Shown here piece by piece: positions 1,831 to 40,577 of a DNA stretch of 40,577 nt. The stretch lies in the NCBI GenBank assembly GCA_041670905.1, contig JBAXYG010000001.1, positions 1-40,577 of the forward strand. The letters run 5' to 3'. The notes beneath the pieces were generated by a model, which had not been told where the DNA came from, did not search any database, and saw nothing but the letters and a program-made list of their open reading frames with translations. How positions within the stretch are numbered: the first letter of the stretch is position 1; the number at the start of each line of letters is the position of its first letter. A program made the translations under genes and the position numbers. This DNA is from Bacteroidales bacterium. GTDB lineage: Bacteria > Bacteroidota > Bacteroidia > Bacteroidales > UBA932.

Positions 1831-1842
1831 TGATCTAATTTT

Positions 1843-6526: not shown

Positions 6527-6540
6527 CAGAACCTCCTTTT

Positions 6541-6987: not shown

Positions 6988-7018
6988 TCTATAATATTTG
7001 TGATGTGTGTTATGTACG

Positions 7019-7026
7019 CAAAAGTA
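7019..7026 (-). promoter_or_regulatory. Bacteroidetes-type -7 promoter box (TACTTTTG) for mraZ/dcw operon
   Basis: Exact match to TAnnTTTG on the minus strand, 31 nt upstream of the mraZ ATG. Confidence 0.4.
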
Positions 7027-7032
7027 AAAATT

Positions 7033-7072
7033 CTTTTCCACATTTTTACAATTTTTTCCATATTTTTCCACA
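7033..7072 (-). promoter_or_regulatory. four direct repeats with 10-bp period (TGTGGAAAAA / TATGGAAAAA / ATTGTAAAAA / TGTGGAAAAG), candidate MraZ operator
   Basis: Read directly on the minus strand, immediately upstream of the -7 box. The GTGG-type core and 10-bp phasing resemble described MraZ boxes. Confidence 0.4.
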
Positions 7073-7126
7073 TATTTGTTAACAAAAAAATAAAAAATAT
7101 TTAACTTGCACCGCACATAATAGAAA

Positions 7127-8428: not shown

Positions 8429-10496
8429 TAAAGTCTTTCCAGATTGTAGATTCCTGATATAGAGTTAAACTGCTTGAAGGTACAATTAAGGTACATTTTG
8501 TCTTGTCCACTCCATAAAATGAATTATATGCAGCTGATGGTGGATTCACAGGATAGCATGTTATATTTGTAAGTGAGGAACAATTGTTGAATAATGCTGC
8601 TGTGAGTGTGGTTATGTTTACTGGAATATTAATGGACTGAAGTGCAGTGCAACCATCAAAAACTCCATTACCAAATTTGGTGAGATTTTTTGATAATATA
8701 ACTGAGGTAAGAGATGTACATCCACTAAAAGAGTAAAGTCCGATTTCGGTAAGAGCATCAGGGGTTAAGGCTTCTGTTAATGCTATACAATTTTGAAAAG
8801 CATAATTTCCGATATATACAGTTTTTGATGAGAGATTTATGCTTTCAAGTGCTATGCAGTTTTTGAACGTCTGTAATTCAATTCTAGTTACATTTTTAGG
8901 TATATTTATTGATTTAAGAGACGTGCAATCCAAAAAAGCTGATGCTCCGATAGATGTTACAGATGATCCTATCTCTATGTTAATAATACTTGTACAACCA
9001 GAAAAAGAGTTGTTACCTATACTCTTCAGGTTTGCCGGAAAATTGATTGAACTTAATCTCTGACAATTGGTGAAAGCAGAAGTATAAATATCAGTTAAGT
9101 TATCAGGTAAAATTACCGTGGACAGATTTATCATCCCTATTCCATTGGTGCTGAAAGCACTGTAAGGAATAACGGTAAGGTTAGTTCCACTGATATCTAG
9201 ATATTCAAGAGAAAGAAAATTAGTTTTAATTGTGGATATGTCGGTATTTGAAATTATTCCTGATAATATAAGTTTTTTTACTTTTAGATAGTCATCAGTA
9301 CTTATTTGTGTGGCTAGATCGCCTTGCTTTTGAGAGTTGATAAAAAACACACCATTGGCATCTTGCCTTAAATTTAATGTGTCGGAAATATACTTTGCTG
9401 TATTTTTAAAGACTATTTGTCCTGTACGGTAAAATTCAGTGTCGGAACCTTGAAAGAAATCAATACTAAGTTGTATAGTATTTGAAGTTATTCCTTTGGT
9501 TTCTACAATTGAAACCCAGTCAGATATATTTCCCAACATCTCAATACTGTATTCCAAATTTGAATTGACGGTTAAATCCAATAATTGAGCATCCCCATTC
9601 ACAGTAATATCATTATCAGTTAGATATATTGTATCAGTCTGTTCCTGGGATATTTTTAATGTATCGCCGAGATTGAGGGTATTATTTCTGATAATGACCG
9701 TTCCTTCTCTATTGTCAAAAGTAGTATTTTTCAATATTTGAAATTGTAATATATTGTTTGTTAGGGCTTTAGTGGTAATATTTTTGATCCAAGTGTCTGA
9801 ACCGGAAGGGATGGTTATTGTATAGTCTACATTGCTATTAACTTCAACTTCAATGTTTCCACCTTCTGTAGCAAGAGAAAATTGTGTATTATCAATAAAT
9901 ATTGCATTGTCCTGAATTTGTGTTACAAAAATGGTGTCAGTAATGGCTCCGGATGTAAAAGAGATTTTTCCAACTCTAGTAGAATATTGGTTAGGGTTTT
10001 CTGCTACATTGAAAGCTAAACTTTTACTTTGTAGAGCTTTTGTCTGTGTTATCCAGTCGCATTCTGATTTTACTGTATATGCGACATTTGACATAATGTC
10101 TACACTGATTACTCCACCTTTGCTTGATATTTCAAATTCTTTATCATGTATGATTATATCATTGTTCTGAGTTTGGGTTATTTCAATAGTGACGACTACA
10201 TTGTCAGCACTAATGGTGACTGTGCCTGTTTTTTCACCGTAGGAGAGATTTTGCCCAACTGTTATTGAAAATGTAGGAGCAAAATTATCTCCACTTTGCG
10301 GAGAAACCGTGATCCAACTATCACTAGCCGTTACTGTCCATAACCAGTTTGTTGTAAGGGTTATCACTTCTGTCCCTCCTTCAGCGGGAAAAGTAATATT
10401 AGTCTGATCAGCAGATAAATATGGATCAGGAGTGCATCTTGATAAACTAATCATCACGAGTGCAAGATAAAAAAATGCAACAAACTTCCTTTTCAT
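8409..10496 (-). CDS. surface lipoprotein with four BACON-like repeats and a C-terminal BspA-type leucine-rich-repeat domain
   Basis: Signal peptide ending ...ISLSRC. It has four ~85-90 aa repeats, each with the pattern F..EGG...V.V.SN..W/Y....DWI. The C-terminal half is ~23-aa LRR units (F.GC.SL.SI.IP..VT.IG). The 3' end overlaps the convergent M23 gene by 20 nt. Confidence 0.85.
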   Translation of the reverse strand: MKRKFVAFFYLALVMISLSRCTPDPYLSADQTNITFPAEGGTEVITLTTNWLWTVTASDSWITVSPQSGDNFAPTFSITVGQNLSYGEKTGTVTISADNVVVTIEITQTQNNDIIIHDKEFEISSKGGVISVDIMSNVAYTVKSECDWITQTKALQSKSLAFNVAENPNQYSTRVGKISFTSGAITDTIFVTQIQDNAIFIDNTQFSLATEGGNIEVEVNSNVDYTITIPSGSDTWIKNITTKALTNNILQFQILKNTTFDNREGTVIIRNNTLNLGDTLKISQEQTDTIYLTDNDITVNGDAQLLDLTVNSNLEYSIEMLGNISDWVSIVETKGITSNTIQLSIDFFQGSDTEFYRTGQIVFKNTAKYISDTLNLRQDANGVFFINSQKQGDLATQISTDDYLKVKKLILSGIISNTDISTIKTNFLSLEYLDISGTNLTVIPYSAFSTNGIGMINLSTVILPDNLTDIYTSAFTNCQRLSSINFPANLKSIGNNSFSGCTSIINIEIGSSVTSIGASAFLDCTSLKSINIPKNVTRIELQTFKNCIALESINLSSKTVYIGNYAFQNCIALTEALTPDALTEIGLYSFSGCTSLTSVILSKNLTKFGNGVFDGCTALQSINIPVNITTLTAALFNNCSSLTNITCYPVNPPSAAYNSFYGVDKTKCTLIVPSSSLTLYQESTIWKDFIIQAAQ

Positions 10497-10507
10497 AATT
10501 TTTTTAT

Positions 10508-10918
10508 TTATTTTTTCAATAAATCTCGTATTTCACGTAATAAAATAATCTCTTCAGATGTAGCAGGAGCAGCAGGTACTGCCGCTTTTTCCTTTTTTTG
10601 TTTTTCAGTAAATTTGTTTATCCCTTTAATCATAATGAATATCGCCCATGCAATAATCAAAAAGTCAAATACGACTTGGATAAAATTACCATAAGAAATA
10701 AAAATTTCCGGAGTAGTCTCTGTGGCTGTTCTTAACATAATCTTCCAACTTGTAAAATCTATTCCGCCAACAAGAACACTAATCAAGGGCATTATAATGT
10801 CACTTACAAGTGAAGATACTATTTTTCCAAAAGCAGCTCCAATGATTATTCCTATTGCCATATCGAGAACATTGCCTCGCATAGCAAAATTTTTGAATTC
10901 TTTGAGAAAATTTTTCAT
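10508..10918 (-). CDS. mscL: large-conductance mechanosensitive channel MscL
   Basis: 136 aa, starting [39 protein letters not shown], with two TM helices. Confidence 0.95.
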
Positions 10919-10944
10919 AATAAAAAGTAATAATGTTTCTTATA

Positions 10945-10952
10945 CAAAAATA
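10945..10952 (-). promoter_or_regulatory. -7 promoter box (TATTTTTG) upstream of mscL
   Basis: Exact TAnnTTTG match on the minus strand, 26 nt upstream of the mscL ATG. Confidence 0.35.
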
Positions 10953-10978
10953 AGTTTTTAATCAGAGAATATCAATTA

Positions 10979-11608
10979 CTATTTTACCCTGATGATATTT
11001 ATTCCATCTCTTACAGGCAATATTAAATTTTCCACACGTGGATTATTATAAATATACTCATTAAATTTCATTATCCCATGAGTTTGAGCATCATTATGAG
11101 GATTTTTGTCATATACTTTTCCATCCCAAAGGACATTGTCTGCGATAATAAATCCGCCTTTACAAACTTTGTCTATTACAAGATTAAAGTATTCAACATA
11201 TTCGCGTTTATTTGCATCAATATATACAAGATCGTATTTTCTGTTTAATGTTGAGATTATTTTTTTTGCATCGCCGAGATGCAGTTTTACTTTATTCTCT
11301 ATTCCCGCGCGTTTAAATCCCTCAATTATCAGATCTTCCAGCTCGTCATTTATTTCAATTGTATCAATTATTCCATCTTCGGAAAGCCCTGCAGATAAGC
11401 AAATGGCGGAATAACCAGTAAATGTGCCTAATTCTAGTATTGCATCTGGTTTTATCATTTGGGATATATTCTTCAATAATTTTCCCTGAATTTTACCGGA
11501 TAACATTCTCGCATGATTTGTTCTCAGATGTGTCTGTCTTTCCAGCCATTCAAGCACCTCTCCTTGCGGAGTTGAATAATCATTTATGTACTTCTGTTCT
11601 TCGGTCAT
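10979..11608 (-). CDS. class I SAM-dependent O-methyltransferase (family 3, caffeoyl-CoA OMT / YrrM-like)
   Basis: SAM motif ILELGTFTGYSAI and metal-binding-type DLVYIDANK. Length is 209 aa. Confidence 0.85.
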   Translation of the reverse strand: MTEEQKYINDYSTPQGEVLEWLERQTHLRTNHARMLSGKIQGKLLKNISQMIKPDAILELGTFTGYSAICLSAGLSEDGIIDTIEINDELEDLIIEGFKRAGIENKVKLHLGDAKKIISTLNRKYDLVYIDANKREYVEYFNLVIDKVCKGGFIIADNVLWDGKVYDKNPHNDAQTHGIMKFNEYIYNNPRVENLILPVRDGINIIRVK

Positions 11609-26112: not shown

Positions 26113-29100
26113 ATGAAAATTGAAAAAACGATTATACCAGATTACCTATTTGAAGTAAGCTGGGAAGTATGTAATAAGATTGGTGGGATACATACGGTTA
26201 TTGCAACCAAATCACTTTTTCTTGGGAAGGAGTTTAAAAAGAACCACATACATATAGGTCCTGATGTCTGGATGGATACTAAACAAAATCCGGAATTCAC
26301 TGAAGATCCGTTACTTTTTCGTTCTTGGAAAGCTGCTGCTAATGAGGAAGGATTACGTGTTAGAATCGGGCGTTGGAATGTCGCCGGCAAACCGGTTGCT
26401 ATTTTAGTGGATTTTACACAATTTATATCAAAAAAAGATGAAATTCTTACCGGATTTTGGAAAAAATTTAAAGTTGATTCTCTAAGTGGTAATTGGGAAT
26501 ATATCGAGTCTGCACTTTTTGGTTATGCTGCTGGAAAAGTGATAGAAAGTTTTGTGAAATTTAATGTTCATCCTCATCATAAGGTTGTTGCACAGTTCCA
26601 CGAATGGATGACAGGAGCAGGTCTGCTTTATATAAAAGATACTAATCTGCCTATAGGAACAATTTTTACAACACATGCTACAATTGTTGGGCGATGTGTT
26701 GCCGGGAAAAACCTTCCTTTATATGATCAGATGTCACATATGAACGGAGATGAACTTGCAAGGGAATTCGGGGTAGTTGCCCGGCATTCTTTGGAGAAAG
26801 CTGCAGCGGTAAACTCCGATGTATTTACGACTGTAAGTGATATTACCGCTATTGAATGCGAACAGTTTTTAGAAAGAAAAGTGGATATTATAACACCGAA
26901 TGGTTTTGAGAACAGTTTTACTCCTAAAGAAGATGAGTTTAAATCATATCAAGATCGTGCCCGTAAGAAACTTCTAGAAGTTGCCTCTATAATGTCCGGT
27001 CAGCATTATGCTGATGACTCTATTCTGATATGCATAAGTGGCCGTTATGAGTATAGGAATAAAGGAATTGATGTTTTCATAGATGCTTTAAGCAGATTGA
27101 ATACAGGCAGTTATTCCGGGAAAAAAGTTCTTGCATTTATTATGGTTCCTTCCGGAAATAACGGACCTAACAAGGATCTTCTTGCAAAAATGCAGAATCC
27201 ATCGATAGATTATACTACAAATACTACTCATTATTTAATTGATGATTATGATGCAATCACAAATCGTCTGAAAGAACTGAATCTTAAAAACAGAGATTCA
27301 GATGAAGTGTCTGTATTTTTTGCTCCTACTTATTTGAATGGTAATGATGGAATATTCAATTTGAGTTATTACGATTTGCTGGTTGGTATGGATTTATCAA
27401 TATTTCCGTCATATTATGAACCATGGGGATATACACCACTTGAATCGCTCGCATTTATGGTCCCTACTGTTACTACAACTTTGGCCGGATTTGGTCTGTG
27501 GGTGCAGATGCATTACCCTAAAAATAAAAGCCATAGAGGCATTGAGATTATATTGAGAAATGATTCTAACTATGATGATGTTGTAAATGGGGTGGTTGAT
27601 CGTATAATTGAGATTGCCAAACTCACTCCAAAGGATATGTTAATTTATAAGCAGAACGCAAAAGATGTTTCGACCATTGCGCTTTGGGAAAATAACATCG
27701 TCTATTATATGAACGCCTATTCTATTGCCATAGAAAAAGTTATAGCTTCAAAAGGAGAGTATCCCGAGATTGTGGACAATAAGCCTCAATCTTACAAGAA
27801 GCTTTGTGCCAATAACCCATCATGGAATAGAGTTCTTATCAACAGACAGATACCTGACAGACTGAAGTCACTTGATACGATTTCTAAAAATATGTGGTGG
27901 TGTTGGAATGAGAATGCTATTGATTTGTTCCGAAATATTGATAAAGAATTGTGGGATTTAACAGATGGGAATCCGATTGCTGTTTTAGATATGATAAATC
28001 TTAAACGGTATAAGGAACTTGAAAAAGATGAAGTGTTTCTGCAAAATCTTGATTCCGTATATGATTCGTTCAACAAATATATGGATGAAAAAAAACATCT
28101 TAAAGGACCAAGCGTTGCTTATTTTTGTATGGAATATGGTTTGGATACCTCGCTTAAGATATATTCTGGTGGATTGGGAATTCTTGCCGGAGACTATTTG
28201 AAGGAATCGAGTGACATGATGGTAAAGATTACAGCAGTTGGACTTTTGTATAGATATGGATATTTTACACAACATTTGTCAGCCATGGGAGATCAAGTTT
28301 CTACATATGAACCTCAGGATTTTATGAAGATACCGGCTATCCCAGTCCGTGATGAAGATGACAATTGGATAACAATAAGTGTTGCCTTTCCCGGAAGAAA
28401 TATTTATGCCAGATTGTGGAGAGTTGATGTTGGGCGTACCGAATTATATCTTCTTGACACCGACTTTGAAGATAACCTGCCTAAAGATCGCCAGGTTACC
28501 CATTATTTGTATGGAGGAGACTGGGAAAACAGGTTAAAACAGGAATTATTGCTTGGCGTCGGTGGTATAAGAGCATTAAGAGCTTTGGGAATAGAAGCAG
28601 ATATATATCATTGCAATGAAGGTCATGCGGCATTTACTGGTGTAGAGAGATTAAATGAATATATTTCGCAAGATAACCTCTCATTTCCTGAAGCAATGGA
28701 GGTGGTAAGAGGTTCATCCCTGTTTACTACGCATACTCCTGTCCCTGCAGGTCATGATTCATTTTCGGAAGATTTATTGAGGGTATATATTGCCCATTAT
28801 CCAGCCCGGTTGAAAATTGATTGGCAAACTTTAATGGGTTTGGGTAAATTAGATGCCTGTAATAGTAATGAAAAGTTTTCAATGAGTATTCTTGCCGCCA
28901 ATCTTTCTCAGGAAATTAACGGAGTGAGTTGGATGCATGGAAAGGTAAGTCGACATATTCTTGCAAACATGTGGCCAGGATATCTTCCAGAGGAGTTGAA
29001 TGTAAGTTATGTGACGAATGGTGTTCATTATCCAACATGGACAGCTCCTGAATGGAAAAAAATACATGCTAAGGTTTTTGGTGAAAAATTCTTAACTCAT

Positions 29101-30351
29101 CATTATGACAAAGAGTGCTTTGAAGGGATTTATCAGATTTCTAATAAAGAGATTTGTGAAACAAGAATGACTTTACGCAAACGGCTGATAGATGAGGTAA
29201 AGGAGTGTATAAGTGATACTAATATAGCAAATCACTATTCACCGCGGCAAATAGTTAAAATAAAGAAAACGCTCAGAGATGATATCCTTACTATAGGATT
29301 TGCCCGTAGATTTGCTACATATAAGAGAGCGACTCTATTATTTAAGAGTCTTGACCGTTTAGATGAAATTGTAAATAATCCGGAACGTCCAGTTCAATTT
29401 TTGTTTGCAGGAAAAGCGCATCCGGCAGATAAAGCTGGTCAGGATTTGATTAAAAATATAATTGAGATTTCAAAAATGCCTCAATTTATTGGTAAAATTG
29501 TTTTTATCCCTAACTATGATATAAAAATAGCCAAGTTCCTTGTTCAGGGAGTTGATGTGTGGATGAATAATCCTACCAGGCCATTGGAGGCTTCAGGCAC
29601 CAGTGGAGAAAAGGCTGTCATGAATGGTGTAATGCACTTTTCAGTTCTTGACGGATGGTGGGTTGAAGGGTATAAAAAGGGAGCAGGATGGGCTTTGCCT
29701 ATGGAAAATACTTATGAAGATCAGAATTTTCAGGATGAACTTGATTCTGCTACTATATATAATATATTAGAGAATGAAATCGCCCCTGTTTTCTATAATA
29801 AAGGTGCGGAAGAACTATCATCAGAGTGGATTCAGATAATAAAGAATACGGTTGCGCAAGTTGCATGTAATTTTACCACCAATAGAATGCTTAATGATTA
29901 TTTCAATAAATATTATTTACCTCTCTATAAACGTCAGAAATTTTTGCTGGATAATGATTTTCGCCAGGCTCGTGAAATTGCTTTCTGGAAGAAGAAACTT
30001 CGCAGGGAGTGGGAGAATATAAGTGTAGTTTCTTTCACAAAACCAGATAATGCAAAAGAATCACTTGTTTTCGGTAAAGAATACAAGTCAGAATTGGTTG
30101 TTTCATTAGGGGATATTGATCCTGAAGACATTGGCGTTGAACTTGTACTTGCTGAACAAAATGCTAAAGGAGAATACAAGATAAAAGAAACATATGAATT
30201 TAAAGTTGTTGATAATAAAGACGGTTTAGTGACATATCAAGCCTATATTCTTCCTGACATTGCCGGAGCATATCATGTGGCTGGAAGAATGTATGCTAAA
30301 AATGAAAAGTTGCCTCATCGTCAAGATTTTGAATTAGTAAAATGGTTGTAG
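26113..30351 (+). CDS. fusion protein: GT3 glycogen synthase (aa 1 to ~555) + DUF3417/GT35 alpha-glucan phosphorylase (aa ~565 to 1412)
   Basis: The N-terminal half has FEVSWEVCNKIGGIHTV and SYYEPWGYTPLE (E-x7-E). The C-terminal half has NPSWNRVLINRQIPDRL...NMWWCWN (DUF3417), YSGGLGILAGDYLKESSD, TTHTPVPAGHD, and the PLP-lysine context EASGTSGEKAVMNG. It is a single uninterrupted 1412-codon frame. Confidence 0.9.
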   Translation: MKIEKTIIPDYLFEVSWEVCNKIGGIHTVIATKSLFLGKEFKKNHIHIGPDVWMDTKQNPEFTEDPLLFRSWKAAANEEGLRVRIGRWNVAGKPVAILVDFTQFISKKDEILTGFWKKFKVDSLSGNWEYIESALFGYAAGKVIESFVKFNVHPHHKVVAQFHEWMTGAGLLYIKDTNLPIGTIFTTHATIVGRCVAGKNLPLYDQMSHMNGDELAREFGVVARHSLEKAAAVNSDVFTTVSDITAIECEQFLERKVDIITPNGFENSFTPKEDEFKSYQDRARKKLLEVASIMSGQHYADDSILICISGRYEYRNKGIDVFIDALSRLNTGSYSGKKVLAFIMVPSGNNGPNKDLLAKMQNPSIDYTTNTTHYLIDDYDAITNRLKELNLKNRDSDEVSVFFAPTYLNGNDGIFNLSYYDLLVGMDLSIFPSYYEPWGYTPLESLAFMVPTVTTTLAGFGLWVQMHYPKNKSHRGIEIILRNDSNYDDVVNGVVDRIIEIAKLTPKDMLIYKQNAKDVSTIALWENNIVYYMNAYSIAIEKVIASKGEYPEIVDNKPQSYKKLCANNPSWNRVLINRQIPDRLKSLDTISKNMWWCWNENAIDLFRNIDKELWDLTDGNPIAVLDMINLKRYKELEKDEVFLQNLDSVYDSFNKYMDEKKHLKGPSVAYFCMEYGLDTSLKIYSGGLGILAGDYLKESSDMMVKITAVGLLYRYGYFTQHLSAMGDQVSTYEPQDFMKIPAIPVRDEDDNWITISVAFPGRNIYARLWRVDVGRTELYLLDTDFEDNLPKDRQVTHYLYGGDWENRLKQELLLGVGGIRALRALGIEADIYHCNEGHAAFTGVERLNEYISQDNLSFPEAMEVVRGSSLFTTHTPVPAGHDSFSEDLLRVYIAHYPARLKIDWQTLMGLGKLDACNSNEKFSMSILAANLSQEINGVSWMHGKVSRHILANMWPGYLPEELNVSYVTNGVHYPTWTAPEWKKIHAKVFGEKFLTHHYDKECFEGIYQISNKEICETRMTLRKRLIDEVKECISDTNIANHYSPRQIVKIKKTLRDDILTIGFARRFATYKRATLLFKSLDRLDEIVNNPERPVQFLFAGKAHPADKAGQDLIKNIIEISKMPQFIGKIVFIPNYDIKIAKFLVQGVDVWMNNPTRPLEASGTSGEKAVMNGVMHFSVLDGWWVEGYKKGAGWALPMENTYEDQNFQDELDSATIYNILENEIAPVFYNKGAEELSSEWIQIIKNTVAQVACNFTTNRMLNDYFNKYYLPLYKRQKFLLDNDFRQAREIAFWKKKLRREWENISVVSFTKPDNAKESLVFGKEYKSELVVSLGDIDPEDIGVELVLAEQNAKGEYKIKETYEFKVVDNKDGLVTYQAYILPDIAGAYHVAGRMYAKNEKLPHRQDFELVKWL

Positions 30352-32237: not shown

Positions 32238-32639
32238 ATGTCATCAATATTTACAAAAATAGTAAATGGTGAGATTCCTTCATATAAAGTGGCGGAAGAT
32301 GACCGTTTTTATGCTTTTTTGGATATCAGTCCATTGACAGTAGGTCATACTTTGGTTATCCCAAAGGTTGAAGTAGATTATATTTTCGATCTTGACGATA
32401 AAACTTATAATGATTTGTTTGTTTTTGCTAAAAAGGTAGCAAAAGCTATTAAATTGTCTGTGCCTTGTAAAAGAGTAGGGGTTGCAGTGTTAGGAATGGA
32501 AGTGCCTCATGCTCATATACATCTTATTCCTTTGCAGACAGAAGGGGATATGGATTTCAGAAAAGAAAAGAAAAAACTTTCCGCAGTGGAATTTAATGAG
32601 ATTGCAAGTAAAATTGCAACAGCATTTGAAAAGTTATAA
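32238..32639 (+). CDS. HIT family (histidine triad) nucleotide hydrolase
   Basis: Histidine triad HAHIHLIP. Length is 133 aa. Confidence 0.92.
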   Translation: MSSIFTKIVNGEIPSYKVAEDDRFYAFLDISPLTVGHTLVIPKVEVDYIFDLDDKTYNDLFVFAKKVAKAIKLSVPCKRVGVAVLGMEVPHAHIHLIPLQTEGDMDFRKEKKKLSAVEFNEIASKIATAFEKL

Positions 32640-32643
32640 ACAT

Positions 32644-33780
32644 ATGAAAAAAATCCTATTATTAGCGTTTGTTGTGTTATTTGTGTCTTCATGTAATAAC
32701 ACACAGAATGCAAAGATAAATGCGACTATAACTGATGCAAAAGATGTAAAAGTTGTACTCCAAAAACTGAACTATAGTAAGATGAGTGTAATAGATACTA
32801 TCACTACTGATTCTGCCGGAAAATTCAAATATAAAGTGAAGCTTCCTAATTCTTCACCTAATTTTTATTATCTCTATATCAATGACACCAAAGTGGCCTC
32901 AATGGTACTATTGCCAAAAGACAACATAACCATTGTTGCTGATGGCAAGGGTTCTTATACTGTTGACGGCTCTCTTGAATCTTCAAATTTGAAGAAAATT
33001 GATAGTACTTTTTATGCTGCAGTTGCTAAAATGAACAGCTTAACAAAAGAGGCACAAACAATAAATACTGACAATAAAGATCAAGTTAAGAGTATAAACA
33101 GACAACGCGGTCAGGTGTATGTTCAGCAAAAAAGAGCAGCCATAAGACATATCATGGACAATCCTAATTCTATAACTTCTGCTGTTGTTTTATTTCAGAA
33201 ATTTGGAGAAAATCTCCCTGTTTTCGGAGAGATGTCAGACGTGATATTATTTAAAAGGGTATATGATTCATTACAGGTGGTCTATCCGGAATCAGAATTT
33301 ATGATAGCTCTTATGGATGAAATAAATGCAAGGGAAAAATTATTTGAATTTGAAAATAAGTTATCAAGCGCATCTGAGATAAGTTTTCCTGATTTGGTTT
33401 TACCTGATATGAATGGTAATCAAAGTATCCTGTCCAGTCTTACTGGAAAGGTTATAATGCTCTCTTTTTGGAGCGTAGCTCAGACTGAGCATAAAATGTT
33501 TAACAATGAATTAAAAGAGCTTTATTCAGTATATAGAGATAAGGGTTTTGAAATATACCAAGTAGCTCTTGATGTAGATAAACCAGTATGGGCATCGGCA
33601 GTGCAGAACCTTCCATGGATAAATGTAAATGATGGACTAGGAACAGCTTCTCCTGCAATAACTGCTTATAACATTAAAAAAATTCCTTCAAATTTCATTA
33701 TAAACAGAAAGGGTGATATTATAGCCCGTGATATTTTTGAAATAAGTAAGATGGAAGAGATAGTAAAGAAAGCTTTATAA
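32644..33780 (+). CDS. DUF4369 + TlpA/thioredoxin-fold lipoprotein lacking the CXXC active site
   Basis: Lipoprotein signal MKKILLLAFVVLFVSSC (Met46 of the track ORF). The C-terminal thioredoxin-fold pattern is FPDLVLPDMNGNQSILSSLTGKVIMLSFW...GFEIYQVALD...IPSNFIINRKGDII. The expected WCxxC is replaced by WSVAQTEHK. Confidence 0.8.
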   Translation: MKKILLLAFVVLFVSSCNNTQNAKINATITDAKDVKVVLQKLNYSKMSVIDTITTDSAGKFKYKVKLPNSSPNFYYLYINDTKVASMVLLPKDNITIVADGKGSYTVDGSLESSNLKKIDSTFYAAVAKMNSLTKEAQTINTDNKDQVKSINRQRGQVYVQQKRAAIRHIMDNPNSITSAVVLFQKFGENLPVFGEMSDVILFKRVYDSLQVVYPESEFMIALMDEINAREKLFEFENKLSSASEISFPDLVLPDMNGNQSILSSLTGKVIMLSFWSVAQTEHKMFNNELKELYSVYRDKGFEIYQVALDVDKPVWASAVQNLPWINVNDGLGTASPAITAYNIKKIPSNFIINRKGDIIARDIFEISKMEEIVKKAL

Positions 33781-34455
33781 TATAGATTTTTTGCTTATTC
33801 CGATAACAAATTCCTTAAGATATAAGGGTTCAAAGTATGCAACATCTTTGAACTCTTTTTTTTGTAAAGATTTTAAAGCTGGTGTAAGCATATAAGTGGC
33901 ATTTGGACAGCAACTTTCAAAGTATGCATTTGGATGATTGATTATAGACCTAAACTTATTTACTCCATCTCCGATGAAAAGAACCGTGTTGTTTTCCAAC
34001 TCATTTTTAAAACTGTTTTCGTCAAGTATTAGTGCCTCAGTTTTACTCTCCTGGATTCCTTCGGAATTAAAAATAGCAGTATATACCTCCATTCTGCGTG
34101 CATCAATCATAGGGACTATTTTTTTTGCTTTTTTAATTCCCTGCATAGCCAGTATTTCTAATGTGCCTACTGCCAATAACGGCTTATTTGCACCAAAACA
34201 CAATCCTTTTACTGTAGAAATTCCTACACGGAGTCCCGTATATGAACCAGGCCCTTCACTAACTGCTATTGCTGTGCAATTGGAAATACTTATACCGGCC
34301 TGTTCAATAACTTCCTTGATAAAAGGGGCAAGGAGTGAGGCATGTTGTTTAGGTGCGGATATTGTCCGTTCTGCGATTATTTTGTCTCCCGAAGATAATG
34401 CTACTGAGCAAGACTCAGTACTGGTTTCAATTAACAAAAGTATTGGGTCTGTCAT
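33775..34455 (-). CDS. tsaB: tRNA t6A37 threonylcarbamoyltransferase complex subunit TsaB
   Basis: N-terminus ILLIETSTESCSVALS and GPGSYTGLRVG. Length is 226 aa. Its ATG overlaps the stop of the upstream adaptor gene (ATGA). Confidence 0.9.
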   Translation of the reverse strand: MTDPILLLIETSTESCSVALSSGDKIIAERTISAPKQHASLLAPFIKEVIEQAGISISNCTAIAVSEGPGSYTGLRVGISTVKGLCFGANKPLLAVGTLEILAMQGIKKAKKIVPMIDARRMEVYTAIFNSEGIQESKTEALILDENSFKNELENNTVLFIGDGVNKFRSIINHPNAYFESCCPNATYMLTPALKSLQKKEFKDVAYFEPLYLKEFVIGISKKSIL

Positions 34456-35714
34456 TTCTTTGGTTCTTCTTTTTCTTCTTTTGCTTTTTCTGTCTTATCT
34501 TTTCCTTTGGCATCCTTTTCAAGTATTTTAACTTTTGACCCTTCTTTTAGAGTCTTACTAATGGCTATATAAGGTGAAACCACAACCTTATCATCTTTAT
34601 TAAGTCCAGATGTTACTTCAATAGAAGTAAGGTCTTGAATTCCTGTTGTGATAATCTTTGCAGATACCGTATTATCATCATTCAAAACCCATACTTGTTC
34701 TTTCAAGTCTCTAGATATGATACATTGTAGCGGGATGGTAATAATCCCTTCCTTTTTATTAGTCAAGATTGATACAGAAGCTGACATACCTGGCCGAAAA
34801 GGAATTATATTTTGACTTAACAGATCATTGTAGGATTCGGGAAGAATTGATACTTTTACTTCAAAATTCGTTACCTGCTCTACAGAAGAACCGATATTTT
34901 TAGCGGAATTTGCAATCTGTGTTACGATACCTTTGAATTTACGCCCGGGATAAGCATCAACTTCTATTTCGGCTGTATCGCATTGTTTGAGTCTTATAAT
35001 ATCATTTTCATTAACATCAACCAAAACCTCCATATTATCTAAATTAGCAATACGGAGCATCTCAGTACCAGCCATCTGGCTTGTCCCTACAACTCTTTCT
35101 CCACGTTCAATGCTCATTTTTGAAATGATACCGCTCATAGGTGCATATATTACGGTCTTTGTCAGGTTTTCGCGAGCTTCTTTTAAAGAAGCTTCACTGC
35201 TCTTAATTGTATATTCTGCAGCATTAAGTTGTTCTTTTGCTACCTCATAATTAGCCATTGCAGTTTCATATTCCGATTCAGAAATGGCTTTTTGCTCGTA
35301 TAAAGATTTATTCCTCTTGTAACTCAGTTCAATCTGGATCAACTGTGCTTTTTGTTGAAGAAATTGTGCTTTAGTTGCATTCAATGATGCTTCAGCTCTT
35401 TCAACGAGAGAAATATATACATCTTGTTTTATTTTAAGAATAAGATCCCCTTTATTTATCTCATTACCCTCTTCAAAGTTTAATTCAACAACTTCTCCGG
35501 ATACGTCTGGAGAAATTTTAACCTCTACTACCGGTTGAATTTTGCCGCTTGCCGGTATTGATTCAACTATATCTTTGGTAATTGGGGTTTCAACGGATAC
35601 TTCCGTTACATTTTTTCTTTTACCACTGAGTGCGGCAACTGCTATAACCAAAAGAATAACTGCCAATGCAATATACCAAGTCTTGATTTTTCTTTTTTTC
35701 TTTTTCTTTACCAT
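34452..35714 (-). CDS. periplasmic adaptor (membrane fusion protein, MacA/HlyD-type)
   Basis: N-terminal poly-Lys tail plus a TM anchor, a lipoyl-like motif (GDLILKI / IYAPMSGIIS) flanking a long alpha-hairpin, beta-barrel regions, and a K/E-rich C-terminal tail. It lies 11 nt downstream of the TolC gene. Confidence 0.9.
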   Translation of the reverse strand: MVKKKKKRKIKTWYIALAVILLVIAVAALSGKRKNVTEVSVETPITKDIVESIPASGKIQPVVEVKISPDVSGEVVELNFEEGNEINKGDLILKIKQDVYISLVERAEASLNATKAQFLQQKAQLIQIELSYKRNKSLYEQKAISESEYETAMANYEVAKEQLNAAEYTIKSSEASLKEARENLTKTVIYAPMSGIISKMSIERGERVVGTSQMAGTEMLRIANLDNMEVLVDVNENDIIRLKQCDTAEIEVDAYPGRKFKGIVTQIANSAKNIGSSVEQVTNFEVKVSILPESYNDLLSQNIIPFRPGMSASVSILTNKKEGIITIPLQCIISRDLKEQVWVLNDDNTVSAKIITTGIQDLTSIEVTSGLNKDDKVVVSPYIAISKTLKEGSKVKILEKDAKGKDKTEKAKEEKEEPKK

Positions 35715-35725
35715 AGTAAGTTTAT

Positions 35726-37048
35726 TTAGAGTATGATAGGAATCCCTTTATAATAATCAATTATCTTTAACTGGAATATGTATTGAAATTTTGCCTGATA
35801 ATATTCCGATTCAGCTTTTATCATATTTGTTTTTGAAATAATGTAGTCGGTACCGTTGATTGCACCGCTTTCAAATTTCTGTTCGGCCATACGGAATGAT
35901 TCTTTCATTGCACGTACATTCTGTTCGGAAGCGAGATATTTCTCATAACAATTACGTGCTTCAGATACAGCAGATTGAATTTCTTTATATATATCCTGAT
36001 GTTTTGTTTTTAAATCTATTTCAGAATTTTTCACAGAAAGTCTGGCATTCTTAACTTTAGTATTTGCCTGAAATCCGTTAAAAATAGGTATGCTTACTCC
36101 TATGCCAACGGAAGGATTACGGTTGTCATTGAATTGTTGCTTGAAAGCTCCCTCTGCGGCATCACTATAATATGTTCCATATCCTGCTGATATGGAAATG
36201 GAAGGATATAGAGCACCTTTTGCCATTGATAATTGGATTTTGCTGTTATCAAGTGCATATTGTGTACTTCTGACCTGTGGTAATTTAAGGGCAACATCAT
36301 AAATGTTTTCTAATGATTCTCCCTGGAATTTTGAAACAATCATTTCCAAGTCCGGAGTTACGATATCGAATTTTTCTGCCGGAGGTAAATCGAGCATTTG
36401 AACCAATGTCAATGTGTTTGTTTCAACCTGGCCGTTAGCATTGACAACTTGTACTCTTTCGGAAGCTACTTGCGCATCAATTTCCAGAAGGGAACTGTAT
36501 GGCTGGCTACCTGCTTCAACTAATTTTGCCGTTCTCTCTCTTTGCTTTTCAATGCTGTTAAAACTAACTAAAGTGTTTTGTTGAATTTGTTTTGAAAGGA
36601 GTAACTGTAAATATGCTTTTGCAATATTAAGGGAAATGTCGTTTCTAAGTTTTTCAATATTCAGGTTGGCAATATTAAGTTGTACTTTATTGCTTTTAAT
36701 TGTATTATGTTTTGAAAAGCCGTTGAATACGGGTAAAGATGCACTTAGGGATGCACTTGTGGCTTGTGTTAACTTATTTTCAATTATGATTAGTTCCTGC
36801 ATATCAACGGAACGTCCCCAATTGAAATTATGCCCGATGGAACCGCTTACACTTGGGAAATAACTTAGTTGGGACTGTTTAAGGGTGTTTTTACTCTGCT
36901 CTACTGCTATTTCCTGCTGTTTTATCTGCAGATTGTTTTCCCATGCGTATTTTATGCATTCTTCAAGGGTCCACAATTTTTGTCCGTAAACTGTAAACGA
37001 CAGAAAAATCATCGAAGCAAGTAATATGTATCGTAAATATTTATTCAT
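35726..37048 (-). CDS. TolC-family outer-membrane efflux protein
   Basis: Signal peptide, then LTLEECIKYAWENNLQIK-type TolC N-terminus. It shows two-fold internal repeat organisation. Length is 440 aa. Confidence 0.9.
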   Translation of the reverse strand: MNKYLRYILLASMIFLSFTVYGQKLWTLEECIKYAWENNLQIKQQEIAVEQSKNTLKQSQLSYFPSVSGSIGHNFNWGRSVDMQELIIIENKLTQATSASLSASLPVFNGFSKHNTIKSNKVQLNIANLNIEKLRNDISLNIAKAYLQLLLSKQIQQNTLVSFNSIEKQRERTAKLVEAGSQPYSSLLEIDAQVASERVQVVNANGQVETNTLTLVQMLDLPPAEKFDIVTPDLEMIVSKFQGESLENIYDVALKLPQVRSTQYALDNSKIQLSMAKGALYPSISISAGYGTYYSDAAEGAFKQQFNDNRNPSVGIGVSIPIFNGFQANTKVKNARLSVKNSEIDLKTKHQDIYKEIQSAVSEARNCYEKYLASEQNVRAMKESFRMAEQKFESGAINGTDYIISKTNMIKAESEYYQAKFQYIFQLKIIDYYKGIPIIL

Positions 37049-37096: not shown

Positions 37097-37130
37097 TAAA
37101 AGAGGGTGCCTATTTTTATAGGACACCCTC
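37097..37130 (-). terminator. rho-independent terminator after the peptide genes
   Basis: GAGGGTGCCTAT-tttt-ATAGGaCACCCTC forms a 12 bp stem with one bulge. On the minus strand it is followed by TTTTAAAATAAT. It starts 5 nt after the stop of the 37136-37333 ORF. Confidence 0.55.
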
Positions 37131-37135
37131 AATTA

Positions 37136-37333
37136 TTATGCCCTTTTACCTATTTGAATCACATATTTACCAAATCTGATTGAAAATAGATAAATGTATC
37201 TGCATGCTGTGCCCAATACATACCCTACAAGATATAAAGCTTCTTGCGCTCCTTTGTCAACACCACCAACAACACTTAAGGATTCCATTTCATTTATTAA
37301 AATTAATCCTGTGTATTTATAATCATTTTCCAT
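37136..37333 (-). CDS. double-glycine-leader peptide precursor B (24-aa leader + 41-aa cationic hydrophobic core)
   Basis: The sequence is MENDYKYTGLILINEMESLSVVGG | VDKGAQEALYLVGYVLGTACRYIYLFSIRFGKYVIQIGKRA. The leader has E at -8 and hydrophobic residues at -4 and -12 relative to GG. It is on the same strand as a C39 ABC exporter and just downstream of it, and it is followed by a terminator. Confidence 0.65.
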   Translation of the reverse strand: MENDYKYTGLILINEMESLSVVGGVDKGAQEALYLVGYVLGTACRYIYLFSIRFGKYVIQIGKRA

Positions 37334-37350
37334 ATCAACAATTTTTTAAA

Positions 37351-37548
37351 TCAATTAATAACGGGTGTTCCCCACCCTTTTTTTATTCCCCTTAGTAAAT
37401 GGGGAATATAATCACCGAAAAAATCCAATACAGTCTTAATTTTTTCGATGCAATTTAGTACATCAACAAGAGACGTTCCTCCTCTTGTTTGAAGTTCGGA
37501 AGAATTTAATCCATCCAGCCCCGATTCTCTCATTCTTTTTTCTTCCAT
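37351..37548 (-). CDS. double-glycine-leader peptide precursor A (24-aa leader + 41-aa amphipathic core)
   Basis: The sequence is MEEKRMRESGLDGLNSSELQTRGG | TSLVDVLNCIEKIKTVLDFFGDYIPHLLRGIKKGWGTPVIN. The LNSSEL...GG pattern resembles the LSxxELxxIxGG leader consensus but is one residue shorter. It lies 17 nt after the PCAT stop and 17 nt before precursor B. Confidence 0.6.
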   Translation of the reverse strand: MEEKRMRESGLDGLNSSELQTRGGTSLVDVLNCIEKIKTVLDFFGDYIPHLLRGIKKGWGTPVIN

Positions 37549-37565
37549 AATGATAATAATTAAAG

Positions 37566-39677
37566 TTATACTACAGTTTGAGGTGTGTAGATATCCACCT
37601 TTGAGTGCGCACTCATATCAATTATTTTATCTGCAATCATAATATTGTCCGATTTATGTGTAATCATGATTATACTATTTCCTTTGTCGCGTAAAGCGAT
37701 TATTGTATCAAGTATATATTTTTGAGATTCATTATCCAGTGAAGATGTGGCTTCATCAAGAATAAGGACAAAGGGTTCTTTATATAATGCTCTTGATAAT
37801 GCTATTCTTTGTTTCTGTCCACCTGAAAGGCAGCAACCATGTTCTCCTATTTTTGTAAGAAGCCCCATCGGCATAGAAGATATAAAATCAGACAGTCCAA
37901 GCTTTTCTATAATAGATATTACCTTCTCCAAATCCGGATCGCCATTTCCACAAGTGATGTTTTCCAATAAGGTGCCGTTTATGAGATCCGGATCCTGTGG
38001 AACTATTGAAACATAGTTGCGCCAACTTTTCAGATTAATAAGATTAATATCAACCCCTCTTATCGATATATTCCCTTTCTGAACTCTGTATCCTCTCATG
38101 ATCAGTGCTGCAATTGAACTTTTGCCACATCCGCTTTCACCGGTTATGGCTGTTATTTTCCCACTGTCAATTACCATTGAATAGTTATTTAGCAAAGTGT
38201 TGCATCCGGGATAGGAAAAAGTCACATTATCAAATACAATATCATAACATTTATTTAAAGGGAATTCCAGAGATGAGTCTATTTCAGGCTCCAGATCAAT
38301 TATGTCAAATAATCTTTCAGCGGAGATATTTGCTTCAGTAATTTCATTGTTGATGTTTACCAATTGGCTTAGTGGGGAAGAAAAGAATGCTGTAAGTGAG
38401 TAGAACGAAACCAACTCCCCAACACTTAATTCTCCTTTAAAAATAAAAATTGATCCTGTTATCAGCAATGTTACAGTAAGTACTTTTGAGATGGCATCAG
38501 AATATGTGGCAAATATGCCCAAATATCTTCCTTCGTCATATATCTTTCTTGCAAGCGAAATATACTGGCTCTCTATCCGTCTTGCAAATATGTTCTCAAT
38601 GCCAAAATATTTAATCGCGCGTACTGCAGTAATTCCCTCCACGGTTTTTTCTTCAAAAGAAGCCGCTTTTTCAATAATGTCTCTATTTACCCTTTTGTTA
38701 ATCTTATTTGAAAAATAGTACAGTATTAAATAAGAAGGAATAAATATCAGCGTTAATAGTGCCAGTTTCCAATAGAATGTAAACATTAGGGCAAAAGAGA
38801 CAATGAGCGTGACTACACTGACAATAATACCAATAAGGCCTTCTGTCAGAAATGAGCGTATCTTCATAGCATCACCTATTCTGGAGTTCAGTTCTCCGGC
38901 ACCTCTTAGTGAAAAAAAACTCAGAGGAAGTTTGAACAGATGATTAAGATATTTCAATATTAGAAGATTGTCTATACTTATTCCTGCACGCAGAGTAAAC
39001 AGTATTCTGCAATATCCAATAAATAGTGTGGCAATCATAAGCATGACCATTATTATACCCACTTGGCTTAATGCTGCAAAATCGTGATTGGGTAATACTT
39101 TGTCAATCAGATATTGAAGAAAAAGTGATGTGCTTATCCCTGCGATAATGTATATTAATGATCCGGAGAAGGAGAGAAGAAAATATTTTTTGGTAAGACG
39201 TACAAGAGAGAAGAATCTTCGTGCCACACTCTCAGTTTTGTTTCCACTCTCAAAATTAATATCAGGAGTCATTATGATAAGATAACCACTCCATCGTTTT
39301 TGCAATTGTTCAATAGTCATTTTGTGATATCCACCATCTGCAGGGTCCATTATTGATGCTACACCTTTTTCTATCTTATTTAAGACCACAAAATGAAGAT
39401 CTCCTTCTTCCGTTAAAAAATGAAGAATGCACGGTTTTCCTATATTATAAAGCGGATCAATTTTTGATTCAGTGGATTTGAATGCCTTTGCGGAAAATCC
39501 TATCCGGTTACATCCATCAATTACCCCTTTAATAGTAGTTCCTGATTTACTTGCCCCACAAGCTTCCCTGATGGTAATAAGAGGTAATCTTAGACCATAC
39601 CACTGTGCAATAGAACATATACATGCAACTGCGCAATCCGATTTGTCATGCTGACGAATTTTATGTACTGGCTTCAT
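37566..39677 (-). CDS. peptidase C39 domain-containing ABC transporter (PCAT, bacteriocin/GG-peptide processing exporter)
   Basis: The N-terminal ~135 aa have the papain-like context Q9, C15 (RQHDKSDCAVAC), H95 (GDLHFVVL) and D111 (IMDPADG). This is followed by a 6-TM-type exporter domain. The NBD has GESGCGKSS, LSGGQKQRIALSRAL, LILDEATSSLD and an IMITHK H-loop. Confidence 0.93.
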   Translation of the reverse strand: MKPVHKIRQHDKSDCAVACICSIAQWYGLRLPLITIREACGASKSGTTIKGVIDGCNRIGFSAKAFKSTESKIDPLYNIGKPCILHFLTEEGDLHFVVLNKIEKGVASIMDPADGGYHKMTIEQLQKRWSGYLIIMTPDINFESGNKTESVARRFFSLVRLTKKYFLLSFSGSLIYIIAGISTSLFLQYLIDKVLPNHDFAALSQVGIIMVMLMIATLFIGYCRILFTLRAGISIDNLLILKYLNHLFKLPLSFFSLRGAGELNSRIGDAMKIRSFLTEGLIGIIVSVVTLIVSFALMFTFYWKLALLTLIFIPSYLILYYFSNKINKRVNRDIIEKAASFEEKTVEGITAVRAIKYFGIENIFARRIESQYISLARKIYDEGRYLGIFATYSDAISKVLTVTLLITGSIFIFKGELSVGELVSFYSLTAFFSSPLSQLVNINNEITEANISAERLFDIIDLEPEIDSSLEFPLNKCYDIVFDNVTFSYPGCNTLLNNYSMVIDSGKITAITGESGCGKSSIAALIMRGYRVQKGNISIRGVDINLINLKSWRNYVSIVPQDPDLINGTLLENITCGNGDPDLEKVISIIEKLGLSDFISSMPMGLLTKIGEHGCCLSGGQKQRIALSRALYKEPFVLILDEATSSLDNESQKYILDTIIALRDKGNSIIMITHKSDNIMIADKIIDMSAHSKVDIYTPQTVV

Positions 39678-39688
39678 ATACTTGATAT

Positions 39689-39928
39689 TTAACTGTTATT
39701 TAAAAGGGAGCATTTTCTCACCCACATGGTTGTCTCTCCAATTTGACCTTCTACCTTACACTCCTGCCCCCCGATAAAATATAGTGCTGAAAAGAGACAC
39801 AATGCAAGAGTCAATAGTAATACGGTAATATATAATACGATTGTTGATGTGTTATTTGAAGGAAATAATCCTTCCACTGTGTTCTCTAATTCAGCGGTTG
39901 AAAATATGTTTATGTTCTCCTTTGCCAT
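39689..39928 (-). CDS. 79-aa single-pass membrane protein, first gene of the PCAT operon (immunity/accessory protein, MFP N-terminal stub, or leader-bearing pseudo-substrate)
   Basis: The sequence is MAKENINIFSTAELENTVEG-LFPSNNTSTIVLYITVLLLTLALCLFSALYFIGG-QECKVEGQIGETTMWVRKCSLLNNS. It ends 11 nt before the PCAT ATG. I do not recognise a family. Confidence 0.5.
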   Translation of the reverse strand: MAKENINIFSTAELENTVEGLFPSNNTSTIVLYITVLLLTLALCLFSALYFIGGQECKVEGQIGETTMWVRKCSLLNNS

Positions 39929-39949
39929 GATAAAATAATTTCTGTTTTC

Positions 39950-39995
39950 TTATGAGCAAAGTAGAATAATTACGAGCAAAAGAATATGCTCATAA
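39950..39995. promoter_or_regulatory. three copies of a TTAYGAGCA motif (two direct copies 20 bp apart plus one inverted copy), candidate operator of the PCAT operon
   Basis: On the plus strand: TTATGAGCA (39950-39958), TTACGAGCA (39970-39978) and TGCTCATAA (39987-39995). The last two form a 9-N8-9 palindrome matching 8 of 9. The set lies 22-67 nt upstream of the first operon ATG. Confidence 0.35.
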
Positions 39996-40040
39996 AAACA
40001 AAATATCATTCAATTGTCAGAGATGACAAACAATATTTTT

Positions 40041-40526
40041 TTAGAAAAGATTCTTTAAATATGGAAAGAAATTGTTTGCTAAATTCAATAATGGTGTATA
40101 AAAATTAGATTCAGCAATTTTGTCAGCTGGAAGAAATTCAACCAGTTGATTTATAGAATTAAGTAGAAATACGACTACAGCTAAAATGATTGATATAATA
40201 ACAATAGACAGGATTATACCAAGAAGTTTATTTAACCACCCAAGCAGAGTTATTTTTATTATCTTTTCAATCAAATTACCAAGCAGGTTGAGTAATAATG
40301 CTACTCCGAAAAATATAACTATGAAAGAGACGATTTTTACCCAAAATTGAGTGAGTTCGACATACTTTAATATCCAGCTAGAAACAATATCCGCACATCT
40401 GATTGATAGCCAAATACCCAAAATAAGCGTAGCAAGAGAGATAAGCTGTTTTATAAGGCCGTTTTTTATTCCAAAATAAATGGCAGGAAGGAAGCAAAGT
40501 ACGATGATGATGTCAATAATTCCCAT
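40041..40526 (-). CDS. cvpA: CvpA family membrane protein (colicin V production protein homologue)
   Basis: The start MGIIDIIIVLCFLPAIYFGIKNGLIKQLISL... and four TM helices fit the typical CvpA N-terminus and size. I chose the start at M10 of the track ORF; the track start is 40553. Confidence 0.85.
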   Translation of the reverse strand: MGIIDIIIVLCFLPAIYFGIKNGLIKQLISLATLILGIWLSIRCADIVSSWILKYVELTQFWVKIVSFIVIFFGVALLLNLLGNLIEKIIKITLLGWLNKLLGIILSIVIISIILAVVVFLLNSINQLVEFLPADKIAESNFYTPLLNLANNFFPYLKNLF

Positions 40527-40577
40527 AAAACATTGCTTTATTGTGTTATTCAAAATTAGTGAATTATAGTATCTTTG

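Follow-up and report, generated by a model that had tools for sequence, protein, structure and literature searches.

The class IIb two-peptide bacteriocins have the GxxxG motif as a hallmark. The export of class II microcins is defined by a double-glycine (GG) signal and three components, a peptidase-containing ATP-binding cassette (ABC) transporter (PCAT), a membrane-fusion adaptor (MFP) and TolC (PMC12219008). Bacteroidetocins are produced from one peptide with a 15-aa leader and a 42-aa core carrying four Cys residues, and their loci encode a protein with five transmembrane (TM) segments and a thiol oxidoreductase, with no immunity gene (PMC6671954). Here we describe a locus in a 40,577-nt stretch of DNA from a Bacteroidales bacterium (UBA932; assembly GCA_041670905.1, contig JBAXYG010000001.1, positions 1–40,577), further referred to as the window, where a PCAT gene is followed by two genes for 65-aa peptides, pepA (37351–37548, minus strand) and pepB (37136–37333, minus strand). 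Taken as a whole, the locus is best explained, and likely so, as a dedicated diderm export module for an unmodified pair of GG-leader peptides resembling the two-peptide bacteriocins.

A syntenic block with two conserved peptide genes

The initial annotation of the window described a compact operon of four minus-strand genes, and the four open reading frames (ORFs) are found where it placed them: a 79-aa ORF with a TM helix (39689–39928), further referred to as the stub, the 703-aa PCAT (37566–39677), pepA, and pepB. The gaps are also as given there, 11 nt between the stub and the PCAT gene and 17 nt both between the PCAT gene and pepA and between pepA and pepB. The limits of the operon, on the other hand, had been set too narrowly, as genes for a TolC-like channel and an MFP are situated directly downstream and are kept in all ten lineages compared (the window and nine further lineages of uncultured Bacteroidales). 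The comparison of synteny across Bacteroidales, proposed in the same annotation, shows one gene order common to the ten lineages: cvpA, a TM ORF of ~51 aa, PCAT, pepA, pepB, TolC-like, MFP and tsaB. The functional unit consists of seven or eight genes, not four.

Word-indexed searches of 5.8 billion proteins with pepA, pepB and a concatenated pepA+pepB profile yielded only clusters of at least 90% identity, from metagenome-assembled genomes of Bacteroidales. The distant relatives of pepB came to light only when 1.84 billion representatives were scanned exhaustively with HMMER. The scan produced seven further sequences with 41–50% identity; according to the contig annotations, each contig with such a relative carries the same eight-gene block. 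A metagenome scan with the pepB alignment, for which the N-terminal patterns chosen were poor, gave one close relative, L057, and a PCAT scan of GTDB genomes led to L001 (Bacteroidales UBA1769), where the PCAT is 61% identical to that of the window and the pepA and pepB ORFs are located in the same order. The gap between pepA and pepB is 9–19 nt across all lineages.

Between the window and L001, pepA is 51% and pepB 52% identical, and the proportion of nonsynonymous differences (pN) is well below that of synonymous ones (pS), which are saturated: pN = 0.33 and pS = 0.72 for pepA, pN = 0.32 and pS = 0.87 for pepB. In pepA, one nonsynonymous and six synonymous changes separate the window from the 98% identical L057 (counted by hand from the alignment). 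Both small ORFs are real genes under purifying selection. One might suspect chance ORFs, given that the word-indexed searches gave no relative outside the clusters of at least 90% identity, but ten lineages retain both ORFs, together with their invariant motifs and with pN far below pS, so that this explanation is already refuted and its probability is practically nil. For the same reason the initial annotation withstands a challenge it had set itself, namely, that the small ORFs might prove not to be conserved in relatives with the same exporter: they stand beside it in every one of the ten lineages.

The block is a core-chromosomal, vertically inherited module. Its housekeeping neighbours include ileS, cvpA, tsaB, a thioredoxin-like (Trx-like) gene, HIT, greA and ribF; a plasmid tblastn search gave no real match, and no mobile-element or plasmid link of the block was observed. 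Rfam and tRNA scans were empty. The mean pairwise identity across lineages is 61% for tsaB, 57% for PCAT, 49% for both cvpA and MFP, 47% for pepA, 44% for pepB and 32% for TolC.

An active-type exporter and its predicted substrates

The 703-aa protein comprises a C39 peptidase domain of the active type, an ABC exporter domain with six TM segments and a nucleotide-binding domain (Pfam Peptidase_C39 PF03412, 1.7e-27; ABC_membrane PF00664, 1.3e-41; ABC_tran PF00005, 1.1e-28). Its alignment with the structure of PCAT1 (PDB 4RY2; E = 3.9e-113 across residues 7–686) extends from end to end, and Q9, C15, H95 and D111 are aligned with the corresponding PCAT1 residues, which we take to be the catalytic ones. 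These four residues are invariant in nine lineages, and both the PCAT1 alignment and the Pfam match confirm the earlier assignment of the N-terminus to an active-type PCAT. The ATPase motifs are also intact (Walker A GESGCGKS, signature LSGGQ, Walker B LILDEA, H-loop ITHK). The best-scoring NCBIfam model is TIGR01193, with 395.8 bits against the curated cut-off of 523.85, hence the protein belongs to a divergent branch of PCATs.

Each window precursor consists of a 24-aa leader and a 41-aa core. Across both families the leaders are 23–26 aa long and mostly anionic, and the cores have 30–43 aa. The Gly-Gly noticed earlier at residues 23–24 of both ORFs is indeed present; since Gly23 and Gly24 are invariant columns in both families, it is not a chance occurrence. 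Recognition of such leaders is known to involve GG (or GA, GS) at positions −2/−1 and hydrophobic residues at −4, −7, −12 and −15 (PMC7018657). In every lineage the pepB leader is hydrophobic at −15, −12 and −4, that is, in three of these four positions, as well as an invariant Glu at −8 and Ser or Ala at −7. The pepA leader (MEE...NSSELQxRGG) invariably starts with MEE and contains an SS[ED]L stretch that is likewise invariant; in all lineages its hydrophobic residues occupy −14, −11 and −6, not −15, −12 and −7, while −4 is variable. The leader-type pattern ascribed to both peptides is therefore not fully canonical: the GG is invariant and the ladder of pepB is near-canonical, whereas that of pepA is displaced by one residue.

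Cleavage of pepA one residue past the GG, which would restore the register, was considered and rejected, as it would leave T, V, I or A at −1 and R at −4. As a separate observation, with a shifted ladder and a canonical one in the same operon, a single C39 domain would have to read both registers.

The pepA core is near neutral and strongly amphipathic (hydrophobic moment up to 0.68) and ends in an invariant GxxxG (G-[FIL]-x-x-G). The pepB core is hydrophobic, with a charge of +2 to +4, and starts with [VIA]D[KR]xA[QK]xxhYxhGYxhG (h, hydrophobic), a stretch that includes GxxxG; hence there is one invariant GxxxG per peptide family. The invariant residues of pepB are G23, G24, D26, A29, Y34, G37, Y38 and G41, and conservation along pepB is strongest where the core starts rather than in the leader. 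In the AlphaFold predictions, pepA has a helix at residues 27–58 (pLDDT 68), and pepB has helices at 15–20 and 27–64 with a break at the GG; the core helices of both peptides are of moderate confidence. Cys is not conserved in the cores: there are 0–1 per core, and none in most pepA cores and in half of the pepB cores. A disulfide bond between the two peptides was considered and rejected on this ground.

The absence of modification enzymes, kinases and regulators, reported initially, holds in the window scans and in the Pfam annotations precomputed for the related loci. In Bacteroidota, GG leaders are also found on precursors of peptides that are made by the ribosome and modified after translation (RiPPs), and one could therefore imagine pepA and pepB as RiPP precursors modified before export by enzymes encoded elsewhere in the genome. 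However, no radical SAM, LanB/C/M, cyclodehydratase or other tailoring gene is present within ~8 kb in the ten lineages, and the cores have no conserved pattern of Cys, Ser or Thr, which makes modification of this kind very improbable.

It is highly likely that the adjacent PCAT takes pepA and pepB as its substrates, cleaves them after Gly24 and exports them. In this scheme the two leaders would dock on the C39 domain, where Cys15, His95 and Asp111 would cut after Gly24 and release two cores of ~41 residues, and the cores would then pass the PCAT at the expense of ATP hydrolysis.

The profile searches of both precursors that had been suggested as a check matched no described family in Pfam, NCBIfam or PDB profiles. 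Pfam, searched with the two window peptides, and NCBIfam gave no match to either of them at E <= 1, including TIGR01847, TIGR03949 and PF10439; for TIGR04149 the negative rests on the absence of a match to any NCBIfam model at this threshold. PDB profile searches with both families gave no meaningful match. Judged by their sequences, pepA and pepB are two new, previously unmodelled peptide families within the known PCAT-dependent GG-peptide systems.

Adaptors, outer-membrane channel and neighbouring genes

The stub comprises a short cytoplasmic N-terminus and one TM helix (maximum KD19 hydropathy 2.4–3.2), its length being 79 aa in the window and ~50–57 aa in the relatives. The conserved form is ~51 aa long, with an E(L/I)ExT(V)E motif and the helix; the tail that follows the helix in the window is frameshifted in L057 and hence is not conserved. 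A stub-like ORF is situated at the same position in all ten lineages, and its retention there despite a mean identity of only 27% argues for a functional mini-protein.

PCATs that are ~40% identical (from Cyclobacteriaceae, Pedobacter and other Bacteroidales) are preceded by an HlyD of the type I secretion system (T1SS) type, of ~390 aa. A hidden Markov model (HMM) of 45 N-termini of HlyD proteins encoded before related PCATs retrieved the stub as the top match among 1049 ORFs (E = 1.3e-6), and hhalign of the stub family against these N-termini gave P = 2.6e-5 (probability 75%). The HMM of the stub family gave no significant match in other loci (E ~0.04–0.1), the TM helix dominating the comparison. 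Whereas the initial annotation had an anonymous TM protein here, these profile matches identify the stub as a relic of the N-terminus of an HlyD-type adaptor. The ~51-aa mini-protein would thus be the piece of the ancestral adaptor that was kept and, speculatively, may remain bound to the PCAT.

The TolC-family outer-membrane channel (440 aa, 35726–37048, minus strand; Pfam OEP 1.6e-51) has a signal-peptide-like hydrophobic N-terminal segment and scores 131 bits with TIGR01844 (type_I_sec_TolC), below the cut-off. Its gene directly follows pepB in all ten lineages, and the MFP gene follows it in every lineage. The MFP (420 aa, 34452–35714, minus strand; Pfam HlyD_D23, HlyD_3 and Biotin_lipoyl_2) has an N-terminal TM anchor segment, WYIALAVILLVIAVAAL. 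Its best assignment is to the resistance-nodulation-division (RND) type, with 194.6 bits for TIGR01730 RND_mfp (cut-off 94.9), followed by MacA with 145 bits, whereas type_I_hlyD scores only 57.6 bits; thus, the downstream adaptor is of the RND/MacA type rather than of the T1SS type usual with PCATs.

The strong hairpin reported after pepB is also present (37097–37135, minus strand) and resembles an intrinsic terminator: 7 bp, a bulge and 5 bp are followed by UUUU, with −20.1 kcal/mol and z = −6.5 against shuffled sequences. A simple terminator scan missed it owing to the bulge. In L057 the base changes keep the pairing, and a GC-rich hairpin of unrelated sequence is present at the same place in eight of the ten lineages, in most of them followed by a T-run. 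In L065 there is no hairpin, and the gap between pepB and the TolC-like gene is only 5 nt.

Both the hairpin between pepB and the TolC-like gene in these eight lineages and the RND_mfp/MacA-type scores of the adaptor would be expected if the TolC-like and MacA-like genes formed an efflux operon of their own, with the MacB or RND pump encoded elsewhere, while the PCAT released the peptides into the periplasm or by another route. This alternative is improbable for several reasons. The adjacency and order of the genes are invariant though the TolC-like proteins are on average only 32% identical, and only 5 nt lie between pepB and the TolC-like gene in L065. The PCAT is the sole pump gene found in or beside the block, as no MacB or RND pump is present among the scanned ORFs of the window (all but 568–8428 and 10508–11608) or annotated in the related blocks. 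The HlyD-type adaptor of the PCAT itself is cut to a stub of ~51 aa, hence the PCAT needs another adaptor for passage through the outer membrane; and in the outgroup locus L043 the order is full-length HlyD, PCAT, TolC.

We consider it reasonably probable that the TolC-like channel and the MFP complete a diderm exporter with the PCAT, the MacA-like adaptor and the channel spanning the periplasm and the outer membrane and giving the cores a way out. In the biological sense the operon does not end at the hairpin, which would stop most transcripts, and the TolC-like and MFP genes would be expressed by read-through or from a start of their own.

A promoter that would transcribe the stub, PCAT, pepA and pepB likely resides in the intergenic region between cvpA and the stub (39929–40040, minus strand), where a GAGCA-N8-TGCTC palindrome (~39974–39991) and a TTTGC box are found. 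In the upstream alignment of nine lineages the palindrome is present in five (the window, L058, L062 and L071, and, imperfectly, L069), and another palindrome in L001 and L059; the TTTGC box occurs in all nine. The box is situated after the palindrome, ~20–25 nt before the ATG in most lineages, and abuts the ATG in L067 and L071. The two elements look like a putative operator and a −7 element of the Bacteroidetes type. A regulator gene is not present in the block, and a scan for sigma-70 promoters, which is not applicable to Bacteroidota, performed at chance level.

The upstream neighbour cvpA (40041–40553, minus strand; Pfam Colicin_V 7.6e-26) belongs to the Colicin V production protein family and adjoins the module in each of the ten lineages, even in L071, which has a different gene on the far side of cvpA; it was not found beside the ~40% identical PCATs. 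In E. coli, CvpA is needed for the production of colicin V, a GG peptide exported by a PCAT and TolC. Inherited synteny may be all that lies behind this adjacency; alternatively, as an invariable neighbour, cvpA might take part in the system, and if so, the locus would offer a way to approach the part that CvpA plays, so far without explanation, in the production of GG peptides such as colicin V.

At the other side of the block, the Trx-like gene (32509–33780, plus strand) encodes a ResA/TlpA-like protein with a thioredoxin fold and DUF4369; it is convergent with tsaB and lies 3.4 kb from pepB. The initial statement that no thiol oxidoreductase is present is true only of the operon itself and has to be qualified by this gene. 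The Trx-like gene is syntenic in most related loci and absent at that position in L001, and it is probably unrelated to the peptides. Involvement of a thiol oxidoreductase was rejected, the gene being located past tsaB and missing there in L001, and the cores having no conserved Cys.

Elsewhere in the window, a 1412-aa ORF (26113–30351, plus strand) is a fusion of Glycogen_syn, DUF3417 and glycogen phosphorylase domains, which is also seen in L062; it is part of a cluster for glycogen metabolism that also comprises GH57, GT4, a debranching enzyme and an amylase of the branching type. A 695-aa protein with BACON domains and BspA-type leucine-rich repeats (8409–10496, minus strand) is probably a surface protein.

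Function and comparison with known systems

The initial annotation suggested a candidate system for unmodified bacteriocins. Its substance stands, as the GG precursors are genuine, the PCAT is of the active type and there is no local modification enzyme, while the word bacteriocin goes further than a core-genome locus with no immunity gene warrants by itself. Once exported, the two cores, that of pepA amphipathic and that of pepB cationic and hydrophobic, both with GxxxG, would most likely form a joint membrane-active two-peptide bacteriocin. By analogy with the class IIb bacteriocins and the class II microcins, the chances that the two cores act together in this way are about even.

Several observations weigh against a two-peptide bacteriocin with its own exporter. 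The shifted register of the pepA leader, the RND/MacA type of the downstream adaptor and the recurrent hairpin in front of the TolC-like gene were described above. None of 19 family members matches any GG or bacteriocin model of NCBIfam, and core-only HMMs of the GG-peptide pairs found beside related PCATs gave no significant match (E = 11 for pepA, 0.11 and 5.2 for pepB). No immunity gene is evident: in the ten lineages the peptide genes are not followed by a CPBP gene or another small TM gene, and the only otherwise unassigned small ORF in the block is the stub, which is homologous to the HlyD N-terminus. The block is core-chromosomal and vertically inherited, and both peptides diverge at about the slow pace of cvpA and MFP (mean identity of 44–47% compared with 49%), the block as a whole being close to its housekeeping neighbours in this respect; this is atypical for toxin loci.

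These latter points are the ones expected if processing and export proceed as described but the peptides are not weapons and have a conserved physiological role, for example, as a secreted signal pair or as a pair associated with the envelope or vesicles. Such a role would explain the retention of the peptides in the core genome, where housekeeping genes flank the same eight-gene block in each of the ten lineages and neither a mobile-element or plasmid link nor an immunity gene is seen. It would also be consistent with divergence of the peptides that tracks that of the PCAT (r = 0.8 for pepA, 0.58 for pepB) at housekeeping-like rates, and with the strongest conservation of pepB at the start of its core and not in the leader. 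GG peptides with non-toxin roles are known elsewhere (PMC7018657). On the other hand, there is no sensor kinase, Rgg-type or other receptor gene in the block; cationic, hydrophobic helical cores with GxxxG fit pore-forming two-peptide bacteriocins; and the nearest relatives of the PCAT adjoin class IIb-type pairs and CPBP-like immunity genes. On balance, we consider a non-antagonistic role unlikely, though it deserves to be kept in view beside the bacteriocin-like pair that we prefer.

A more specific possibility, which we rate as doubtful, is a chimeric tripartite exporter consisting of the PCAT, a split-off HlyD N-terminal subunit of ~51 aa, an MacA/RND adaptor and the TolC of the locus, which would export a co-evolving pair with a conserved non-antagonistic function. 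To our knowledge, no tripartite exporter of this kind has been described.

In either case, the two peptide families are invisible to current models (NCBIfam for both families, Pfam for the window peptides) and represent diversity missed by microcin and class II mining in Bacteroidota. The locus is a natural case of a PCAT that has lost its HlyD-type adaptor but for an N-terminal mini-protein, beside a MacA-like adaptor and TolC, and this arrangement is a testable model for the part of the adaptor that a transporter really needs. A core-genomic, slowly evolving pair could show whether some GG pairs of Gram-negative anaerobes are housekeeping products and not weapons; if toxic, the peptides would be candidate narrow-spectrum agents against Bacteroidales.

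Compared with the bacteroidetocins (class IIf; PMC6671954, PMC8546649), the module shares a Bacteroidales producer, a GG leader, the requirement for a PCAT, mature peptides of ~41–42 aa and the absence of an immunity gene. It differs in having two peptides, leaders of 23–26 aa and 0–1 Cys per core, and its block contains neither the 5-TM gene nor the oxidoreductase gene, the Trx-like gene being outside it, past tsaB. Thus, the initial view that the peptides are not bacteroidetocins was correct, since every defining feature of the latter is absent.

With microcin V (CvaC, the PCAT CvaB, the MFP CvaA, and TolC; PMC12219008), the module shares a Gram-negative producer, the GG signal, the export route and small unmodified products. 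In terms of the tripartite definition of class II microcin export given in the same study, a PCAT, an MFP and TolC are all present, adjacent and conserved, but the T1SS-type (HlyD/CvaA) MFP is represented only by the N-terminal HlyD relic. Hence, the module has an adaptor of the RND/MacA type while its HlyD/CvaA-type adaptor is cut to ~51 aa; it also encodes two co-conserved peptides and its own TolC, has no adjacent immunity gene, and is found in Bacteroidales rather than Proteobacteria.

The class IIb bacteriocins of Firmicutes (lactococcin G and plantaricin EF/JK; TIGR03949 for lactobin A/cerein 7B) are similar to the module in the two adjacent precursor genes of one operon, with GG leaders of ~24 aa, the dedicated C39 ABC transporter, and the unmodified cores of 30–43 aa, predicted to be helical in the module, with one GxxxG each. 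The module differs from them by the absence of HMM matches, by a diderm producer with TolC and MFP, by the absence of an adjacent immunity gene and the out-of-register leader of pepA, and by its core-genomic, vertically inherited locus.

The last group is formed by clusters with HlyD, PCAT, helix-turn-helix (HTH), CPBP and GG-pair genes (L002–L052), found in Cyclobacteriaceae, Pedobacter and other Bacteroidota. Their usual order is HlyD, PCAT, a ~100-aa HTH_11 protein, CPBP-like TM proteins and one or more GG-peptide pairs (e.g. L052, 8165–9829, and L009, 8412–9208), where the C-terminus of the first peptides reads F-x-x-G-[FWY], while the second ones start with GLSE...GY. The pairs look like a large class IIb-like family of Cyclobacteriaceae and Sphingobacteriia, and GG-peptide pairs beside the ~40% identical PCATs score above the cut-off for TIGR03949 (class IIb bacteriocin) or TIGR01847. 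These clusters differ from the module in having a full-length T1SS-type HlyD, canonical leaders, an HTH gene and putative immunity genes of the CPBP type, and they have no adjacent TolC or MacA-like adaptor, except for L043, with TolC downstream of the PCAT, and L006, with an unrelated divergent TolC–MFP pair.

At the same time, their PCATs are 36–42% identical to that of the window, the N-terminus of their HlyD is homologous to the stub, and their first peptides, as in pepA, end in G-[FIL]-x-x-G-[WFY], for example, GIKKGW in L039. In profile–profile comparison, pepA goes with the first peptides (P = 8.7e-5, with this shared end) and pepB with the second ones (P = 0.001–0.002), while the swapped pairings give P = 0.18–0.65. 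These profile similarities are suggestive of a distant common origin of pepA and pepB with the GG-peptide pairs of these clusters.

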